From NCBI RefSeq assembly GCF_048403405.1, contig NZ_CP183129.1: a DNA stretch of 64,000 nt. One strand, given 5' to 3'. Below, one piece after another: positions 1,525 to 28,376 of the stretch. Under the pieces are notes generated by a model that saw only the letters and a list, made by a program, of their open reading frames with translations, did not search any database and had not been told where the DNA came from. A program made the translations under genes and the position numbers. Each line of letters starts with the position of its first letter. Position 1 is the first letter of the stretch. The DNA comes from Escherichia coli. Lineage in GTDB: Bacteria > Pseudomonadota > Gammaproteobacteria > Enterobacterales > Enterobacteriaceae.

Positions 1525-1714
1525 AGCGCTTGCTCCTTTTTCGGGGAGGCGCTAACCTATCACTTGCTTAGGGTAGACGGTTAGGGCCTCGGTTAAACAA
1601 AAGTGTTTTCCGGGGCCTTTCCACATCCGGCCATCGGGTATTCCCTCCGACCATCAGCCGAAAGGCACCCGCGCGTAATCTATCGCTTTTTTGTTACTCC
1701 GGCAATTCTGCCTG

Positions 1715-1975
1715 TTAATTCTGAGGTAAAGGCAAACTCATCTGATTGTTTCCCCTGTGTGAAGCTGGCAGCTCATGCCACGGGATACCTTCTGAAGAGT
1801 GAACGCCGGAGGCGTGTTTTGATGTGAATTTATGGAAGGCTTCCAGTGTTGAGAAGCATACGCCGCATTCCAGATTGTTACACTGGTAATACTTTTGCCG
1901 CACGGTGTTTGAATCATTTTCCGGACGACTGGTGCGGATACGGGCAGATGCGCCACAAAGCGGACAACGGAACAT
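1715..1975 (-). CDS. ogr: Ogr/Delta-family zinc-finger late transcription activator
   Basis: MFRCPLCGASARIRTSR...YYQCNNLECGVCFST matches the P2 Ogr pattern (MFHCPLC...RTSR...YHQCQNVNCSATF). It sits next to gene D as in P2. Confidence 0.9.
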   Translation of the reverse strand: MFRCPLCGASARIRTSRPENDSNTVRQKYYQCNNLECGVCFSTLEAFHKFTSKHASGVHSSEGIPWHELPASHRGNNQMSLPLPQN

Positions 1976-2017
1976 AGCGACCTCCCTTAACGTGGTGCTG
2001 CCGCTATTCTAAGTTGC

Positions 2018-3127
2018 TCACTCTGTTTCCGCTATCCATTCCGGGATTTTTGCCTCAAGCTCAAGCTGCGTGGTAAAGCCGCTGTTATCAATAGTGTGCT
2101 CGGCTTTTGCAATGATCCAGTCCTGATTATCAATCTCGCTTTTAAATCCTGTTACCGTACCATGCATTTCGGGGTAGAGTTCTGCACGTCCACGCGCCAG
2201 CGTGATGGAGAATGATGCGGCTCCGCGTTGTAGTTGCTGCCACTTTGCCGCCGCTGCGCGTCTTGCTGCCTGTTCGTTCTGATAGGTCTTGCGTAACACA
2301 AACACATTGCCTTCCGCGCCTTCCATATAATCACCTTCACGGCTGCTGCTTTTCTCCTTTTGGGGTTTTGGTGGTTTGCGGCGTTTCACGCTGACTTTTT
2401 TCTTTTCCCCGTAATTAAGATCAAGCCAGTAGGCGCGTACCCCCGTATACGCCTCGCGGTCAGCAATACGGAACTGATGGCGATCGCCGCTGCTGCGTGT
2501 AATGGCGAACGAGGGCAACGGCTGGCCCTGTGCGTTCACGCCACCACCTGGCATGATGAATAACAGATTGCCGCTTTTTACCGTGGTGATTGCGCCCAGC
2601 ATTTCCGCCATGCGCGTAAGGAAGGACATGTCGCTTTCTTCGGTCTGGTCGGCGTGGTCGATTTCGATATCCATCAGCATTTCGCTGATTTGTGGTTTCA
2701 GACCATACCGATGAGCGATGGCGGATACCACACGCTCAACGGTCACATCATGCCAGGACACCTCACGTTTAACGTTAAATTCATCCCGAAAATCTGCGCT
2801 TCTGGCTGAAACAGTCAGCCTGTCCGGCGGTCCTTCGTGAGCGATTTCATCAACAATGTAAGTGCCTTTTTCTGTCAGCGGTTCTCCTTTCCAGCCAATG
2901 AGAACCGTCAGGCGCGCGCCCCGTGGCGGTAGCTGCAACTGACCATCCGCATCATCCAGCGTGATGGTGAGCTGGTCCGCCTCAAATCCCCGGTTGTCGG
3001 TCAGTGACAGGCTCATCAGGCGCTCTGCCACGCCTGACAGCGTTTTACCCTCCGCGAGAATATCAAAATCCGGCATTTTCACGGGGTCTGTGCCCTGACT
3101 GAGCAATTGCATGGTGGTGTCGGTCAT
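2018..3127 (-). CDS. D: tail protein gpD (late control D family)
   Basis: The ORF-track 413-aa frame was trimmed to ATG 3127, which is preceded by AGGGAGGGAACAG. The protein MTDTTMQLLSQGTDPVKMPDFDILAEGK... is the P2 D family. Confidence 0.88.
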   Translation of the reverse strand: MTDTTMQLLSQGTDPVKMPDFDILAEGKTLSGVAERLMSLSLTDNRGFEADQLTITLDDADGQLQLPPRGARLTVLIGWKGEPLTEKGTYIVDEIAHEGPPDRLTVSARSADFRDEFNVKREVSWHDVTVERVVSAIAHRYGLKPQISEMLMDIEIDHADQTEESDMSFLTRMAEMLGAITTVKSGNLLFIMPGGGVNAQGQPLPSFAITRSSGDRHQFRIADREAYTGVRAYWLDLNYGEKKKVSVKRRKPPKPQKEKSSSREGDYMEGAEGNVFVLRKTYQNEQAARRAAAAKWQQLQRGAASFSITLARGRAELYPEMHGTVTGFKSEIDNQDWIIAKAEHTIDNSGFTTQLELEAKIPEWIAETE

Positions 3128-22188: not shown

Positions 22189-23940
22189 ATGATTCAGGAC
22201 GCTTTTGTGCGCCAGCGTGCGCGACAACTTTACTGGCAGGGTTATCCGCCCGCAGAAATATCACGTCTGATGGGAATAAACCCGAACACGATTTATGCGT
22301 GGAAAAAACGCGACCAGTGGGATGAAACGCCACCCGTGCAGCGTGTCACGCAGTCCATCGATGCGCGCCTCATCCAGCTTACTGAAAAACAGAATAAAAC
22401 AGGCGGTGACTTTAAGGAAATAGACCTGCTGACCCGGCAACTTAAAAAGCTGCATGATGGCCAGCCGGATGTGATGGCCGCAGGAAAGAAAGGCCGGGCG
22501 AAAAAACTCAAAAATCATTTCACGCCGGAACAGATTGCCGCACTGCGGGAAAAAATCATCAGCAGGCTGGAGTGGCATCAGCGGGGCTGGTTTGACTCCC
22601 TGACCCTTTGCAGGGAAGCCGGGATACGTAACAGGATGATCCTGAAATCCCGACAGATTGGGGCGACCTGGTATTTTGCACAGGAAGCACTGCTGATGGC
22701 GCTGCGTGACGATGTGGTGCAACCTTATCAGCGTAACCAGATTTTTTTGTCTGCGTCGCGTCGTCAGGCGTTCCAGTTTAAAAGCATTATTCAGAAGGCC
22801 GCGGCTGAAGTTGATGTGGAGCTGAAAGGGGGCGATAAAATCATCCTCTCCAACGGCGCAGAGCTGCATTTTCTCGGCACTTCTGCTGCGTCGGCACAGT
22901 CCTATACGGGCAATTTTTATTTTGATGAATTCTTCTGGGTCAGTCGCTTTGCTGAACTGCGCAAGGTGGCTGGCGCTATGGCAACCCTCAGCGGACTGCG
23001 GCGCACCTACTTCTCCACGCCATCCACCGAAACGCACGAGGCATACGCCTACTGGAACGGCGACCGCTGGAACGAGAAAAAGGCCACGCATAAACGCCAG
23101 CGTTTTTCTGTGGACTGGAAAACGCTGCATAACGGGCTTATCTGCCCTGACCGGACGTGGCGGCAAATTGTCACGCTGGAAGATGTGGTTAATCACGGCT
23201 GGAAACACACCGATATTGATGAAATTCGTGATGAAAACACCGAAGACGAGTTCCTCAATCTCTATATGTGTGAGTTTGTCCGCGAAGGGGAATCGGCATT
23301 TAACCTGAATATCCTGATTGGCTGCGGTGTTGACGGATACGACGACTGGAAAGACTGGAAACCTTTTGCTCCCCGCCCGATGGGGAATCGCCCGGTATGG
23401 ATTGGGTATGACGCAAACGGCAGCAGTGGCAACGGCGACAGCGGCGCTGTGTCCGTGGTGGTTCCTCCGGCTGTTCCTGGTGGCCGTTTTCGAACGGTGG
23501 AGACGCGACGCGTTCAGGGGCTGGAGTTTGAAGAACAGGCCAGAGTCATTGAAGAGTTCACGTGTCGCTACAACGTGGAACACATCGGCATTGATGTGAC
23601 GGGCGGGAACGGGGAGGCTGTTTATCAGATAGTGAAACGGTTTTTCCCTGCCGCTATTCCGTACACCTTCACGCTGTCATCAAAACGGTCGCTGGTACTG
23701 AAAATGCTGCAAATAATGCGTGCCGGGCGGTGGGAATACGATCGCGCCGAACGCGAGCTGGTCGCGGCCTTTAACGCCGTGCGTAAGGTGAAAACACCGG
23801 GCGGCTTTATCACTTACGAAACGGACCGCGCGAGGGGGATCAGCCACGGCGACCTTGCGTGGGCAACCATGCTTGCTGTCATTAACGAACCAATTGGCGG
23901 CGAAGGAGAAAACGAGCGTTTCACGGTTATGGAGTTCTGA
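22189..23940 (+). CDS. P: terminase large (ATPase) subunit gpP
   Basis: ORF track 583 aa, P2 P family, divergent from O. Confidence 0.95.
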   Translation: MIQDAFVRQRARQLYWQGYPPAEISRLMGINPNTIYAWKKRDQWDETPPVQRVTQSIDARLIQLTEKQNKTGGDFKEIDLLTRQLKKLHDGQPDVMAAGKKGRAKKLKNHFTPEQIAALREKIISRLEWHQRGWFDSLTLCREAGIRNRMILKSRQIGATWYFAQEALLMALRDDVVQPYQRNQIFLSASRRQAFQFKSIIQKAAAEVDVELKGGDKIILSNGAELHFLGTSAASAQSYTGNFYFDEFFWVSRFAELRKVAGAMATLSGLRRTYFSTPSTETHEAYAYWNGDRWNEKKATHKRQRFSVDWKTLHNGLICPDRTWRQIVTLEDVVNHGWKHTDIDEIRDENTEDEFLNLYMCEFVREGESAFNLNILIGCGVDGYDDWKDWKPFAPRPMGNRPVWIGYDANGSSGNGDSGAVSVVVPPAVPGGRFRTVETRRVQGLEFEEQARVIEEFTCRYNVEHIGIDVTGGNGEAVYQIVKRFFPAAIPYTFTLSSKRSLVLKMLQIMRAGRWEYDRAERELVAAFNAVRKVKTPGGFITYETDRARGISHGDLAWATMLAVINEPIGGEGENERFTVMEF

Positions 23941-24986
23941 TGAGCAGAAAAAATAAAAAAGTGCGCATGAGTTCACGCATTGATCTCGCTGATGCGCTCA
24001 GGAAAGAATCATCGCTCAGTGCATTCACATTTGATGGTCCTTATCGCCTGACCGGGCATGACCTGCTGGACAATATGTACTGTGCTGATAACGGGCGGTG
24101 GTATGAAACCCCGGTGGACTGGTACGGTCTGGCAAGAGCCGCCCGGCAAACGTCCTGGCATCAGTCTGCGCTTTACTTTAAGCGCAATGTATTACTCGGT
24201 TGCTACATCCCGCACCCGCTGCTTTCCCGGCAGGATTTCTCGGCGCTGGCGCTGGACTGGTTTGTGTTCGGTAACGCATTCCTTGAGCTTCGGAGCAATA
24301 TGCTCGGCGAACCGCTTAAATTACGGCACGCCCTGGCGAAATACATGCGACGCGGAAGCGATCTTGAATCATGGTGGTATGTGCAGGATGGCAAGGACGC
24401 GTTCCAGTTTCGCCCTGGCAAAGTGTGCCACCTGATGAATCCGGATATTAACCAGGAAATCTACGGCATGCCGGAATATCTTGGCGCATTACTCTCGGCC
24501 AGCCTTTCTCATTCGGCGGACATGTTCAGAAAACTGTACTACGACAACGGATCCCACGCCGGGTGCATCATCTACATCGGTGCAGCGCAGGTAAACCGCG
24601 AAAGCATGGACTCCCTGAAAGAAACGTTACAGGGTGCGCGTGGTGGTGGTGCATTTAAAAACGTGCTCATTCATGCGCCCAACGGGGGCAAAGAAGGGGT
24701 GCAAATTTTGCCGTTCCAGCAGATCACCGCAAAAGATGAGTTCATGAATGTTAAGGCGGCATCCCGTGATGATGTGCTGGCTGCGCACCGCGTTCCGCCG
24801 CAACTGATGGGGGCGATGCCGGGCGAAAAAAGTGCGTTTGGTGATGTGGAGAAGGCCGCGCGGGTTTACGCAATTAACGAGCTGATGCCCGTCATGGAGG
24901 CCATGAAGCACATCAATGACTGGCTTGGCGAAGAGGTGATCCGCTTTAACCCTTACGCACTGTTAGACACCCAGCCCACATCCTGA
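23940..24986 (+). CDS. Q: portal protein gpQ
   Basis: ORF track 348 aa, P2 Q family, with an ATGA overlap with P. Confidence 0.95.
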   Translation: MSRKNKKVRMSSRIDLADALRKESSLSAFTFDGPYRLTGHDLLDNMYCADNGRWYETPVDWYGLARAARQTSWHQSALYFKRNVLLGCYIPHPLLSRQDFSALALDWFVFGNAFLELRSNMLGEPLKLRHALAKYMRRGSDLESWWYVQDGKDAFQFRPGKVCHLMNPDINQEIYGMPEYLGALLSASLSHSADMFRKLYYDNGSHAGCIIYIGAAQVNRESMDSLKETLQGARGGGAFKNVLIHAPNGGKEGVQILPFQQITAKDEFMNVKAASRDDVLAAHRVPPQLMGAMPGEKSAFGDVEKAARVYAINELMPVMEAMKHINDWLGEEVIRFNPYALLDTQPTS

Positions 24987-25012
24987 CGCGCTTCGCTTGT
25001 CTGCTGCTTCGC

Positions 25013-25037
25013 CGGGGCATAAAAAATTTATGCCCCG
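25013..25037 (+). terminator. hairpin after Q
   Basis: CGGGGCAT-AAAAAATTT-ATGCCCCG. Confidence 0.5.
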
Positions 25038-25199
25038 ACTCTCCAGCTCCTGTATCAGTCAGATAATTTCACGACGCTTTCCTGCTGATTGCCATCATCG
25101 ACAGTCAGACTCTTACGCAATCCCACCGCGTTGACTGCATGTTCTCGCCGTCTCAGTGCGATTTTGACGGCCTTACCTTTCACCCCATCAAATCAAAAG

Positions 25200-25450
25200 C
25201 CCTCACGTCTTTTTCACGCTCAGCGTGAGAAATACAGCCATTCTGTTGTGTCTCTGCGACATCGTTCAGGGGATGCTATTTACCCCCTGAAACGCGGGCT
25301 GTTCCCCCGTCACCTGCGCGCAGAAAAAGCGCGTTTTTTTGTGCACGCACGGATCCTTGACGGATCCAGCCGCCATGCGGGCCGGAAGGGTAAAAAGTCG
25401 TTCAAAAAAATTGTGCAAATTTGTGCACTTTTGTGCAGGTAAGCATGCCT
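25200..25450. other. probable cos / packaging region (exact cohesive ends not identified)
   Basis: This is the non-coding stretch next to the portal gene, as in P2. The segment CCGTCACCTGCGCGCAG (25306-25322) resembles my memory of the reverse complement of the sequence adjoining the P2 cos end. No G-rich 19-mer like P2/186 was found. Confidence 0.3.
25411..25440. repeat. three perfectly phased 10-bp direct repeats TTGTGCA(AAT/CTT/GGT); a fourth TTGTGCAC at 25339-25346
   Basis: Read directly from the sequence. They lie between the putative cos and the cargo promoter. Confidence 0.8.
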
Positions 25451-25456
25451 ATATAT

Positions 25457-25485
25457 TTGACCGTGGCTTGCCTTTGATGTAGTTT
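25457..25485 (+). promoter_or_regulatory. sigma70-like promoter candidate for the cargo operon (TTGACC-17-TAGTTT)
   Basis: Hexamers read by eye. Followed by the small inverted repeat AACCAC-N5-GTGGTT (25498-25514). Confidence 0.3.
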
Positions 25486-25537
25486 ATACGTCACAAAAAC
25501 CACAAAACGTGGTTATGATTTCTATGAGGGGGTTGAT

Positions 25538-25573
25538 ATGAAAAAAATGTATGATGAATTTGATGGTTTCTAA
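25538..25573 (+). CDS. 11-codon mini-ORF MKKMYDEFDGF (possible leader peptide)
   Basis: GAGGGGG lies 5 nt upstream of the ATG. The stop is 20 nt before the terminator hairpin. It is too short for statistics. Confidence 0.3.
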   Translation: MKKMYDEFDGF

Positions 25574-25593
25574 GCTACGTTGACCTCTAATGA

Positions 25594-25621
25594 GGCGGGG
25601 ATTTGCTCCCCGCCTTTTTTA
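25594..25621 (+). terminator. intrinsic terminator / attenuator 14 nt upstream of the first cargo gene
   Basis: GGCGGGGA-TTTGC-TCCCCGCC followed by TTTTTTAT. Confidence 0.7.
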
Positions 25622-25634
25622 TGGATGAAATAGG

Positions 25635-26132
25635 ATGAACCCAATAACACTACAAATCATCAGCAATGCTATTGTTCTGCTTGGCGTTTTGGTTGCCATT
25701 GGAACCATTATCTACAATGTGCGTACCGCAAAAAAAACTCAAACGGCCAACTTTCTTTTTGAGAGTCGGCAAGATATGCAATATATAGAGTCATTGCATA
25801 CCCTGAAACAAGTGCATCGTTCAGGCAAATCATTTCGTTCTTATGTTTTTCCTTGTGATGGTTGCATAATAACAGATGAAGAAATGGCCGAGCGTCGAAA
25901 ATTTCAATATATTTTAAATTTTTACGAGCGAGTTGCTGTAAGTATTCGTGAAGGTATTTATGATGAAAAAATGATAAAAAGAACATCTTACACAACAGTT
26001 GTAGAGACATATGATATTGCCGAGCCATTAATTAAAGCAATCAGAGAAAGCATTAATTCGGATACTACATATCAAGAATTCGAATGGTTAGTAAGAAGAT
26101 GGAAAGCTAATCCTTTACGGAAAAACAAATAA
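25635..26132 (+). CDS. cargo protein 1: single N-terminal TM helix plus ~130-aa helical soluble domain, function unknown (reminiscent of DUF4760-type proteins)
   Basis: ORF track 165 aa, AT-rich. There are no enzyme motifs I can recognise. Confidence 0.8.
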   Translation: MNPITLQIISNAIVLLGVLVAIGTIIYNVRTAKKTQTANFLFESRQDMQYIESLHTLKQVHRSGKSFRSYVFPCDGCIITDEEMAERRKFQYILNFYERVAVSIREGIYDEKMIKRTSYTTVVETYDIAEPLIKAIRESINSDTTYQEFEWLVRRWKANPLRKNK

Positions 26133-26171
26133 TGTTTTACCCTTTAATTTACAAGTAACACAGGGGGAAGT

Positions 26172-27014
26172 GTGACACAGAATCCGTTTTCATTTTATGA
26201 CTTTTTGGGCTATCTAATTCCAGGTGGGTTATTCCTGTTTATCCTTTTTTTGTTTTCTATTGAAATTAACCCTGTTTATATAGAAGGTATTCTTAACCAT
26301 ATCCTGAAATATAAAGAAATAATAAGTGTATTTATATATGTGGCATTAATCGTTCTATCATATATTTCAGGTCACTTCATATCTATTCTATCATCCTGTT
26401 TAATTGAAAAATACATGAACAGTAAACTTGGGTATCCTTCAATTTATCTGTTTTCTAAAAGAAGCTCCCTGAAAATAAAACGACATAATACTAAGTTCAG
26501 TATAGTTAATTTTATTCGTGGAGTTTTTTTATTTCCTGTATCAGCTTTTGATAAAGCAGAACATCATAAAACCACACTGCATTCTATACTTATTAAAGTC
26601 TTTTGGCCGCAAATACGAGATGGTTATATAAATGTTTTTTCTGTATCTACGCTATATCGACGTAAGGGCTTGAGGGGCAATCTTTTTCGCCTTGCTTATC
26701 ATTATGTGTATGAACATTCTAAAAATCATCAGGTGAAAATGCAAAACTATGTTGCTTTGTATGGTTTTTGTAGAAACATTACATTTGTTTTTCTCGCTTC
26801 AGTCTGGTTGCTTATGTTCCTGCTCCTTCTATCCTTTTTAATAGATATAAATATCAGACTGTTACCTTTTTGTTTTCTTCTCTTGTTTTGTATTGCTGTA
26901 TCCCGAGTATTTTATTATGGTTTTGTTAAGTATTATCGCCGCTATTCTCTTGAGGTTTTAATGGCATTTGCGGTACTTCAGCACGATAAAAAAACTTCGG
27001 CAATTTCATCATGA
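26172..27014 (+). CDS. cargo protein 2: polytopic membrane protein, function unknown
   Basis: ORF track 280 aa with a GTG start after GGGGGAA. Hydrophobic helices sit at the N-terminus (FYDFLGYLIPGGLFLFILFLF, IISVFIYVALIVLSYISGHFISIL) and the C-terminus (ITFVFLASVWLLMFLLLLSFLI, LLPFCFLLLFCIAV). Confidence 0.8.
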   Translation: MTQNPFSFYDFLGYLIPGGLFLFILFLFSIEINPVYIEGILNHILKYKEIISVFIYVALIVLSYISGHFISILSSCLIEKYMNSKLGYPSIYLFSKRSSLKIKRHNTKFSIVNFIRGVFLFPVSAFDKAEHHKTTLHSILIKVFWPQIRDGYINVFSVSTLYRRKGLRGNLFRLAYHYVYEHSKNHQVKMQNYVALYGFCRNITFVFLASVWLLMFLLLLSFLIDINIRLLPFCFLLLFCIAVSRVFYYGFVKYYRRYSLEVLMAFAVLQHDKKTSAISS

Positions 27015-27024
27015 TTTGAAACAT

Positions 27025-27049
27025 TGGCACCCTGTTAGCAAGGGTGCCA
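27025..27049. terminator. hairpin between convergent cargo gene 2 and parR
   Basis: TGGCACCCT-GTTAGCA-AGGGTGCCA; no clear U-tract. Confidence 0.4.
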
Positions 27050-27097
27050 GAATGATGTGTTGGTCTGTATTTTATTAGTTCACATACAATTATCAGA

Positions 27098-27412
27098 TTA
27101 TTCTGGGAATAAGGTCTGAATATTCTTTTTTATTCTATAAAAATTGCATTCAACTCCGCTAGGCTGATTATCCTGGTATGTTTCCTTGATGCTAACGGTA
27201 TTGAAGGGGAGGTTGTCCTCTGGCCATTCGGCCATCCAGTAGGCAAATGCTGGGTTGCGCTTTATGAGCGCTAGCCCAGCCAGAAAGGCCGCGCGTTGCG
27301 CGCGGCTGCGTTCGGAGGCTGGTAGGCTATCGAGGTAATTGCACGCCTCCTGTTCACTCTTGACGGCGGCGGGCTTCAGATAGAAACTTATCCGTCTGGT
27401 TGGTGTCGTCAT
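27098..27412 (-). CDS. parR: ParR-like centromere-binding adaptor
   Basis: Trimmed to ATG 27412. MTTPTRRISFYLKP...YLDSLPASERSRAQRAAFLAGLAL parallels R1 ParR (..TLDSIPQGERSRLNRAALTAGLAL). Confidence 0.8.
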   Translation of the reverse strand: MTTPTRRISFYLKPAAVKSEQEACNYLDSLPASERSRAQRAAFLAGLALIKRNPAFAYWMAEWPEDNLPFNTVSIKETYQDNQPSGVECNFYRIKKNIQTLFPE

Positions 27413-27416
27413 TGGT

Positions 27417-28376
27417 TTACTCCTTGTCCATTGCGTACAGCCCATTAACCAGAGCAAACTGTGGCACCCCGTCCGCGATGAAAGTCGCATTAACTCCGCA
27501 GACTTCGCGGATAGCGGGTGCCACAATCTCCGCCCCTCCACCGACAACCATCACCCGCCCGTAACCCGAAAAAACCGCCAGCGCGCGGATCACGCGTTGT
27601 TTCAGTGTTTCTTCCTTTTCACGAATAACCGCCATCAGGCTGGCGTAATGCGCGTCATTGTGGATGTGCTGGCGCAGCCAGGCTTCATCATGGCGATGTT
27701 CGATAATGGTATTGGCGATGTGGTGACTGGTGCGCATACCGTTAGTGGCCATCACCGACAGTACGGCATCGGCCATCAGGGAAACGCCTACGTGTGGATC
27801 GCAAAACACCTGGCTGATACCTGCCAGTTGCCCTTGAACCTTTGCCACATCCAGCGTGGTTCCGCCTAAATCCACAATCAGCAGGGATTCAAACGGACTC
27901 ATGTCAGCCAGTGCTTTAAAGCCAGCCGGAATGGATTCAGGCATAACCCGCACGTTACGGATAGTGAATGCTTCGCCGTTCTGGTACTCCACCGAGCGCA
28001 TAACGTTCGCTTTTTTGCGGTTGATGTTGGCCATGTCCGGCTGTGCGTTTGTCTCGAAATACTCGCTCAGTGGCAGGGTGACAACCACATCCACCTCTTG
28101 TGGCGTGATGCCTGATTTGACCAGCGCGTGATGAATGGCGATTACATTCACATCGCTGTACTGGTATTGCGTGTCGGTCGTCTGGACAAAGCGATCGCTG
28201 ACCGGATCAAAACCATAGCGCACGCCATCAAGCATGTAGTTCGCGGGCTGCATGCCACCGAACGGCGCAGACCATTCCGACTTGAAGCTGTTCGGGCTGA
28301 TGGCGTTGCGGCGTTCGCCATTCTCAGTCCATGCCAGCTTGATGTTGGTGGAGCCGTCGTCGATACAAATTTTCAT
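27417..28376 (-). CDS. parM: ParM/StbA actin-like segregation ATPase
   Basis: MKICIDDGSTNIKLAW...ISPNSFKSEW...YSDVNVIAIHHAL...VMPESIPAGF...LIVDLGGTTLD...GVSL...VMVVGGGAE is colinear with plasmid R1 ParM as I remember it. Confidence 0.95.
   Translation of the reverse strand: MKICIDDGSTNIKLAWTENGERRNAISPNSFKSEWSAPFGGMQPANYMLDGVRYGFDPVSDRFVQTTDTQYQYSDVNVIAIHHALVKSGITPQEVDVVVTLPLSEYFETNAQPDMANINRKKANVMRSVEYQNGEAFTIRNVRVMPESIPAGFKALADMSPFESLLIVDLGGTTLDVAKVQGQLAGISQVFCDPHVGVSLMADAVLSVMATNGMRTSHHIANTIIEHRHDEAWLRQHIHNDAHYASLMAVIREKEETLKQRVIRALAVFSGYGRVMVVGGGAEIVAPAIREVCGVNATFIADGVPQFALVNGLYAMDKE

Follow-up and report, generated by a model that had tools for sequence, protein, structure and literature searches.

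Two separable candidate cargo modules in the P2 hotspot of Escherichia coli: a DUF4760 gene with a conserved leader peptide and a gene of the Csx27 superfamily

The cos-proximal interval between gpQ and gpA is the P2 hotspot of Rousset et al. 2022 (PMC9122126), whose Table S5B lists a pair of genes as 'system #3: DUF4760' in 1,102 of 18,150 loci, with the Phobius note '1 TM in protein 1, 4 TM in protein 2'. This pair is analysed here in a stretch of 64,000 nucleotides of Escherichia coli NZ_CP183129.1 (GCF_048403405.1), hereafter the window, where an insert at 25457-27049 occupies the gpQ-gpA interval. Protein 1 of system #3 is identical to the product of gene 1 of the insert, protein 2 is a few residues off that of gene 2, and the locus is the same. 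The catalogue line treats the two genes as one system and is without the short upstream open reading frame (mini-ORF), the fold and the Csx27 link described below. The cassette itself is no new discovery; new here are the separability of its genes, a conserved leader peptide, an EP-like fold of gene 1 and the place of gene 2 in the Csx27 superfamily.

Csx27 is a membrane accessory protein of type VI-B1 CRISPR-Cas, reported to have four helices. Gene 2 resembles it in a profile match and in four predicted membrane helices, but exceeds the 206-position profile by about 80 residues and lives in enterobacterial prophages. The Csx27 family was reportedly described by Smargon in 2017 and by Makarova in 2019. 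No cas13b, CRISPR array, competence, ubiquitin-like or WYL gene occurs among the immediate neighbours examined (for gene 2 of the window the portal gene, DUF4760, parR/parM and gpA), no dedicated CRISPR-array search having been made. The folds closest to a model of gene 1 are those of EDS1, PAD4 and SAG101, plant immune receptors for TIR-derived nucleotides. Gene 1 differs from this family in having no lipase-like domain, no evidence of heterodimers, a membrane anchor instead and no TIR gene nearby.

At the same P2 hotspot, Rst_2TM_1TM_TIR of phage AC1 (Rousset et al. 2022) also comprises small membrane proteins including a single-pass one; unlike in that system, ORF, Pfam and PADLOC scans find no TIR gene in the interval. 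DUF4760 was considered as the 1TM partner of the AC1 TIR system and rejected (hhalign probability 0.3%, AC1 1TM protein against the DUF4760 profile). An earlier note on this DNA, made from the sequence alone, had recognised neither a functional motif nor likeness to a named defence system, Kiwa included, and had proposed a PADLOC check. No catalytic or NTPase domain is detectable in gene 1 or gene 2, and no component of Kiwa or of other PADLOC-DB 2.0 systems matches, except that gene 2 hits Csx27, a likeness the note had missed, and gene 1 gives a chance-level match to PDC-S35 (E=0.014). HK97 gp15, T4 Imm and P22 SieA are small inner-membrane exclusion proteins that form self-contained 'moron' units, a layout to which the modules described here are similar; no sequence or fold relationship to them was found, and DUF4760 is mostly cytoplasmic. 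The tnaC, ermC and mgtL attenuators place a short translated leader ORF and then a terminator before the regulated gene, a layout shared with the DUF4760 leader.

The insert is foreign, AT-rich cargo within the documented P2 defence hotspot. Its guanine-plus-cytosine (GC) content is 0.34 (gene 1 0.349, gene 2 0.316), against 0.54 on the terminase/portal side and 0.557 on the side from parR to gpA. We give an even chance to the reading that it consists of two independently mobile single-gene cargo modules, brought into a single transcription unit in one E. coli P2-like prophage lineage and probably serving phage exclusion or defence. The two genes are:

25635-26132, plus strand: gene 1, a DUF4760 protein of 165 residues with one N-terminal membrane helix and a cytoplasmic all-helical domain
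26172-27014, plus strand: gene 2, a four-helix membrane protein of 280 residues, Csx27 superfamily, GTG start

The genes are 39 nt apart, with no terminator in the gap. ORF calls, GC values and neighbours bear out the anatomy given in the earlier note: an AT-rich insert between portal Q and the early operon (terminase P and Q on the left; parR, parM and gpA on the right), carrying two same-strand genes of just this size and spacing.

Outside E. coli the two genes do not travel together. A scan with one genome for each species gave 28 DUF4760 loci, all without a gene 2 relative, and DUF4760 is present there as a low-GC single-gene insert. It occupies the P2 hotspot in Xenorhabdus, Kluyvera and Dryocola and different prophages elsewhere, and lies between housekeeping genes, at genus-conserved sites, in Enterobacter, Atlantibacter, Rahnella and Franconibacter. 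On viral contigs, 52 of 61 DUF4760 loci are without gene 2; 21 of these 52 are at the P2 position after portal Q, including L135-L137, whose terminase and portal are 99% identical to those of the window, and in many P2-like phages DUF4760 is the sole plus-strand gene of the hotspot. Of the 66 viral loci that hold a gene 2 relative, 59 likewise lack DUF4760. The DUF4760-free relatives are single genes of low GC (0.22-0.37) in lambdoid prophages, located either beside xis/int, where the early-left operon ends, or within the nin region. Even inside the cassette the alleles have separate histories, since locus L044 possesses a gene 1 that is 99% identical to that of the window and a gene 2 that is only 86% identical.

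Among 5,426 complete E. coli genomes, 288 carry the complete cassette, which also agrees at 99.8% identity with three P2-like coliphage records in the databases. Across these 288 genomes gene 1 never falls below 95% identity, and gene 2 is at 95% or more in 286 and at 80-90% in two. Judged from these sequences, the co-occurrence in E. coli is that of one young cassette.

An obligate two-component membrane defence, with DUF4760 and the four-helix protein as sensor and effector working only together, would agree with the shared strand, the 39-nt gap and the missing terminator between the genes. It would also agree with the E. coli genomes, where each gene occupies 291 places in 288 genomes and the linkage is perfect, so that all 288 genomes having either gene possess both, and with Rousset et al., who list the pair as one system. 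We nevertheless consider it improbable: co-occurrence is confined to one cassette and each gene is without the other in all other lineages, the alleles recombine independently (L044 and the identity bands in E. coli), and DUF4760 has a different constant partner in the mini-ORF. The two-component unit proposed in the earlier note is not upheld, and the co-occurrence of homologues, which it had suggested as a check, is absent from the 28 non-E. coli loci and from most viral ones.

The constant partner of DUF4760 is, to judge from the compared loci, not gene 2 but a mini-ORF. An ORF of 8-15 codons lies upstream of 56 of 58 distinct DUF4760 genes of 28-99% identity, sampled from Enterobacterales, Pasteurellaceae, Rhodovulum, viral contigs and an uncultured proteobacterium; of the two genes without such an ORF, one is at a contig end and the other is truncated. 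The encoded peptides end in DEFDGF, DEFEGF, DEYDWF, DEFEWV, NEGWDGF or close variants, with the terminal pattern [D/N]E[F/Y/G][D/E/W][G/W/D][F/V/...] before the stop. The 48 distinct leader sequences differ mostly by synonymous, third-position variation (GAT/GAC, GAA/GAG, TTT/TTC, GGT/GGC); the collection pattern admitted only those codon classes, so this synonymous count is biased, and peptide variants read by eye agree with it. In enterobacteria an intrinsic terminator is present between the mini-ORF and DUF4760. In Pasteurellaceae there is no terminator, and the mini-ORF stop overlaps the DUF4760 start as TAATG. The leader of the window contains the following features:

25457-25485, plus strand: promoter-like site read from the sequence, with -35 box TTGACC (25457-62), 17-nt spacer and weak -10 box TAGTTT (25480-85)
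25498-25514, plus strand: 5' leader stem-loop AACCAC-AAAAC-GTGGTT, from scan and sequence reading
25526-25573, plus strand: Shine-Dalgarno GAGGGGG (25526-32) and mini-ORF of 11 codons, MKKMYDEFDGF and stop (25538-25573)
25583-25588, plus strand: ACCTCT box between mini-ORF stop and terminator, nearly invariant in enterobacterial loci
25592-25620, plus strand: intrinsic terminator found by scan, a strong 10-bp stem (25592-25616) followed by a T-run
25621-25638, plus strand: conserved ATGGATGAA box, opening in the window a 5-codon ORF (MDEIG and stop) whose stop overlaps the gene 1 ATG (ATGA)

The mini-ORF at 25538-25573 is absent from the RefSeq annotation. With a short ORF and its Shine-Dalgarno followed by an intrinsic terminator ahead of the regulated gene, the leader has the layout of a leader-peptide attenuator, and we read it as a putative leader-peptide control element; alternatively, the peptide could act in trans. 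The terminator at 25592-25616 lies 18 nt ahead of the gene 1 ATG. Its stem is retained across 21 aligned loci with occasional compensatory changes (e.g. G-C to A-U in L136), and distant loci have other stem sequences at its place. In the minimum-energy fold of the single sequence, the ACCTCT box pairs with the Shine-Dalgarno region of the leader. In Pasteurellaceae the true start of DUF4760 (M-D/N-E) falls at the place of the ATGGATGAA box; this box is in frame with DUF4760 in L013, L122 and L136 and out of frame in the window, where the overlap of the MDEIG stop with the gene 1 ATG suggests termination-reinitiation coupling. Rfam has no family for the leader, with no match near the gathering score in 24900-27200.

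The earlier note had placed a sigma70-like promoter and a leader with a terminator ahead of the genes. The terminator exists at 25592-25616, but the conserved leader peptide was overlooked. As to the promoter, the -35 box TTGAC(T/C) is kept at the equivalent place in related DUF4760 loci, but TTGACC-N17-TAGTTT is a weak match to the consensus and was not called by the consensus promoter scan, which called GTCACA-18-TATGAT at 25490-25519. Many DUF4760 promoters carry a palindrome, (A/G)TTACC-N5-GGTAA(T/C), between -35 and -10 (L012, L014, L016, L017, L120, L121, L124, L131, L140, L146 and L165), which looks like an operator for a regulator. In the window the spacer palindrome (25463-25479) is degenerate, GCTTGCC-TTTGA-TGTAGTT. 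At the place of the 5' stem-loop, related loci possess hairpins of different stem sequence, e.g. CCACT-AAA-AGTGG and GACTAC-AAAGC-GTAGTC, and these differences, compared by eye, look like covariation.

An insertion sequence of the IS4 family, IS421, is located in the leader terminator (~25605), between mini-ORF and DUF4760, in L172 (E. coli ST131 NZ_OX637964, IS421 at 1713-3040) and also in L117. The exact junction is common to four complete genomes, and the element is otherwise arranged in others. Such an insertion would uncouple gene 1 from its leader.

Gene 1 itself contains a near-invariant motif, YQEFEWL (residues 146-152, window 26070-26090), that resembles the leader endings DEFEWV and DEFDGF; the protein motif is unchanged where the leader-peptide variant changes.

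The conserved peptide raises the alternative that mini-ORF and DUF4760 form a toxin-antitoxin-like pair, in which an abundant, unstable acidic peptide restrains a membrane-damaging DUF4760 and its loss, by phage shut-off or loss of the element, frees the toxin and leads to abortive infection or post-segregational killing. It is the peptide sequence, not merely the ORF, that is conserved; the strong Shine-Dalgarno and the terminator behind it would yield an excess of peptide over DUF4760, the two ORFs overlap by TAATG in Pasteurellaceae, the peptide endings DEFDGF/DEFEWV resemble YQEFEWL of the protein, and the adjoining ParM and ParR, as partition genes, would fit post-segregational killing. 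Partition genes are, however, absent from most DUF4760 loci, the stable chromosomal copies conserved within genera are atypical of addiction modules, and conservation at the amino-acid level fits a cis-acting ribosome-arrest peptide equally well. To our knowledge, peptides of 8-13 residues are not known as antitoxins, which also counts against such a pair; we regard it as quite unlikely.

The assignment of gene 1 to a DUF4760-type family with one N-terminal transmembrane helix, tentative in the earlier note, is borne out. Gene 1 matches Pfam DUF4760 (PF15956) with E=1.8e-34 and 119.3 bits against a cut-off of 25, over profile positions 2-141 of 141, and hydropathy gives one N-terminal hydrophobic segment. 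The protein also belongs to phrog_2284, whose function category is none known. Full-length relatives among those listed are mostly 160-200 residues long and nearly all single-domain, the matches including one protein with an additional domain and some short fragments. A profile search aimed at distant relatives or fusions returns single-domain proteins only, and an NCBIfam search gives no match for either protein of the insert.

The structure model of gene 1 is confident (predicted local distance difference test, pLDDT, 92.3; predicted template modelling score, pTM, 0.79) and consists of a long N-terminal helix including the membrane segment, followed by a helical bundle. Foldseek, proposed earlier for both proteins, ranks EDS1 first for this model, with a probability of up to 0.98, TM-scores of 0.52-0.59 and E-values of ~0.3; the AlphaFold2 model of gene 2 is too poor for such a search (pLDDT 55.5). 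The region matched in the EDS1 family is presumably the helical EP domain (PF18117) of EDS1/PAD4/SAG101, whose fold the model would then share. Gene 1 has no Pfam EP-domain match and no match among sequences of the Protein Data Bank (PDB) at E up to 10, and a fold search with gene 1 in the viral structures of BFVD gives nothing informative. Sequence homology of DUF4760 to the EP domain was rejected, the hhalign probability against AtEDS1 345-623, which contains this domain, being 0.25%. Because there is no sequence similarity and no TIR gene nearby, we treat the resemblance as a lead and not as a family assignment.

The plant EP domain is described as without structural relatives outside the EDS1 family. 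That DUF4760 is its membrane-tethered bacterial and phage counterpart, switching on a membrane response when it binds a small acidic ligand, is a highly unlikely reading at present; under it, the ligand may be a nucleotide-derived immune signal or the co-encoded DEFDGF-type peptide itself. If true, mini-ORF and DUF4760 would constitute a new kind of peptide-controlled single-gene immune module, and the receptor arm of plant TIR signalling would have in DUF4760 a candidate relative among prokaryotes.

Against the PADLOC profile of Csx27, gene 2 scores E=1.6e-5, a match of moderate strength to a profile shorter than the protein. The same profile is matched by 15 of 15 close relatives of gene 2 (best 5.6e-8) and by 32 of 68 diverse ones (best 2.2e-10). 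Gene 2 belongs to phrog_12528, has no Pfam family match, and in the PDB sequence search gives a chance match only; its family comprises 1,102 clusters at 50% identity (E≤0.001). Hydrophobic segments at residues 8-38, 44-75 and 198-253, the last of them holding two helices, amount to four helices by hydropathy, in keeping with the polytopic protein of the earlier note. The N-terminus FYDFLGYLIPGG is nearly invariant in the family, which conserves an N-terminal QNPFSxYDFLGYLIPG, then GH..S...E, YPS and QNYVALYGF.R, and a C-terminal KFYRRY.LE. A paralogue of 288 residues (44% identity) occurs on more than 1,000 contigs and is very common in lambdoid prophages of E. coli; in L003-L006 (6001-6867) it stands after YfdP/YfdQ/YfdR-like genes and before a PrtN-like gene, near dinF/lexA.

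Defence genes adjoin both families at several loci. A complete Gabija system follows DUF4760 in L130 (6864-10030; GajA 6.9e-228, GajB 1.7e-146), and a ParA-like ATPase and a RelA/SpoT-like protein follow it in L140 (5348-7116). Relatives of gene 2 adjoin AbiU/AIPR in L104 (5179-6879; AbiU 6.6e-112) and a PIN_8 protein in L103 (6939-8282). A general link of DUF4760 to defence islands was rejected, as the chromosomal loci sit among housekeeping genes. The main text of a 2025 survey of TIR-linked effectors contains no 'DUF4' term. In the analogous P4 hotspot, six of eight unknown loci proved defensive.

Genes of non-defence function, serving lysogenic conversion or envelope stress to the benefit of the host or of the phage's own cycle, and switched on, for instance, under translation or Mg2+ stress by way of the acidic leader peptide, are a further alternative. 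DUF4760 and its leader are stable between housekeeping genes in the four genera named above; gene 2 relatives lie inside the lambdoid early-left operon, which suggests a role in lytic growth, and the P2 hotspot also hosts cargo unrelated to defence, partition genes and a cytolethal toxin among it. Short acidic nascent peptides, moreover, sense Mg2+ by destabilising the ribosome, as in mgtL, which counts in favour of this alternative. Against it stand the recurrence of both genes at sites with validated defence genes, their strong AT-richness and patchy distribution, and the high hit rate among unknowns of the P4 hotspot (6/8). On balance we hold non-defence genes to be a serious but somewhat unlikely explanation.

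Under the preferred reading of two joined modules, module A (25457-26132) comprises the promoter, the 5' hairpin, the 11-codon leader ORF, the intrinsic terminator and DUF4760. Most transcripts would probably end at the leader terminator, keeping the level of DUF4760 low; translation of the leader peptide would permit read-through or re-initiation, so that DUF4760, and gene 2 behind it, could be made, as in an attenuator. DUF4760 is predicted to be a single-pass inner-membrane protein, whose cytoplasmic EP-like domain, as modelled, most likely binds a ligand or protein and is not an enzyme; as a membrane-tethered sensor or effector it may block or abort infection by other phages. Module B (26172-27014) encodes the four-helix protein of the Csx27 superfamily, which most likely would act alone as a channel-like exclusion or immunity-modulating factor.

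Our best single guess is a role in exclusion or abortive infection, which may equally prove right or wrong; it is preferred because both genes recur at accessory sites of phages where validated defence genes are also found. Several points weigh against the reading as a whole. Given the operon-like look and perfect linkage of the pair, the genes may be cooperating in this E. coli lineage. In about half of the DUF4760 loci the gene stands singly between housekeeping genes, at genus-conserved sites outside defence islands, which fits a general envelope or stress function equally well. A single AlphaFold model underlies the EP-like resemblance, which sequence comparison does not support. The best-known leader-peptide attenuators control biosynthetic and antibiotic-resistance genes, and a consensus fold of the leader contains the terminator and a small hairpin but no convincing antiterminator structure. 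Among Csx27 proteins the sole reported activity is to repress Cas13b, an immune effector. A literature search on DUF4760, PF15956, the protein accessions and the PHROG identifiers returned nothing relevant and no experiment on either protein, and Rousset et al. 2022 (PMC9122126) include neither sequence in their tested-system tables. Because of the stable chromosomal DUF4760 genes, the early-operon relatives of gene 2 and the repression by Csx27, non-defence and immune-modulating roles keep a share of the probability.

The remaining features around the two genes are:

22189-23940: terminase P, left of the insert
23940-24986: portal Q, left of the insert
27025-27049, no strand: hairpin of 9 bp, TGGCACCCT-GTTAGCA-AGGGTGCCA, between the convergent gene 2 and parR, read from the sequence

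The hairpin facing parR is present as described earlier; it was not called a terminator by the scan because no plus-strand T-run follows it. On the right side, and convergent to the insert, are ParR (Plasmid_stab_B, 1.9e-28), ParM (StbA_N/ParM_N, 1.4e-81) and the replication protein gpA. The ParM/ParR actin-type partition module (window 27098-28376, minus strand) is the hotspot 'system #1' of Rousset et al. In the ORF list ParR appears as a TTG-start form of 149 residues overlapping parM; the RefSeq parR coding sequence is shorter (315 nt) and ends 4 nt ahead of the parM stop, its equivalent in the window being ~27098-27412. On the other side, about 637 bp just after the portal gene of the ST131 prophage (L172, 443-1079) are absent from the window (~24955-24980). 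This stretch includes a minus-strand ORF of 174 residues (WP_000236495), to which a minus-strand ORF of equal size and matching position corresponds in the annotation of phage vB_EcoM-705R2.

The cassette is the third commonest unit of the E. coli P2 hotspot, present in ~5% of complete E. coli genomes including ST131. Since it consists of two separable modules, each gene deserves cloning and testing alone, and a construct beginning at the annotated DUF4760 ATG would lose the apparent control element of mini-ORF and terminator. The leader peptide, conserved but unannotated, is newly recognised as a feature of an entire Pfam family, and with gene 2 the poorly understood Csx27 membrane family is now placed in prophages of enterobacteria. 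Should the EP-like fold be confirmed, DUF4760 would make the origin of the EDS1-family domain open to testing and would add to the parallels between bacterial and plant TIR/NLR immunity.

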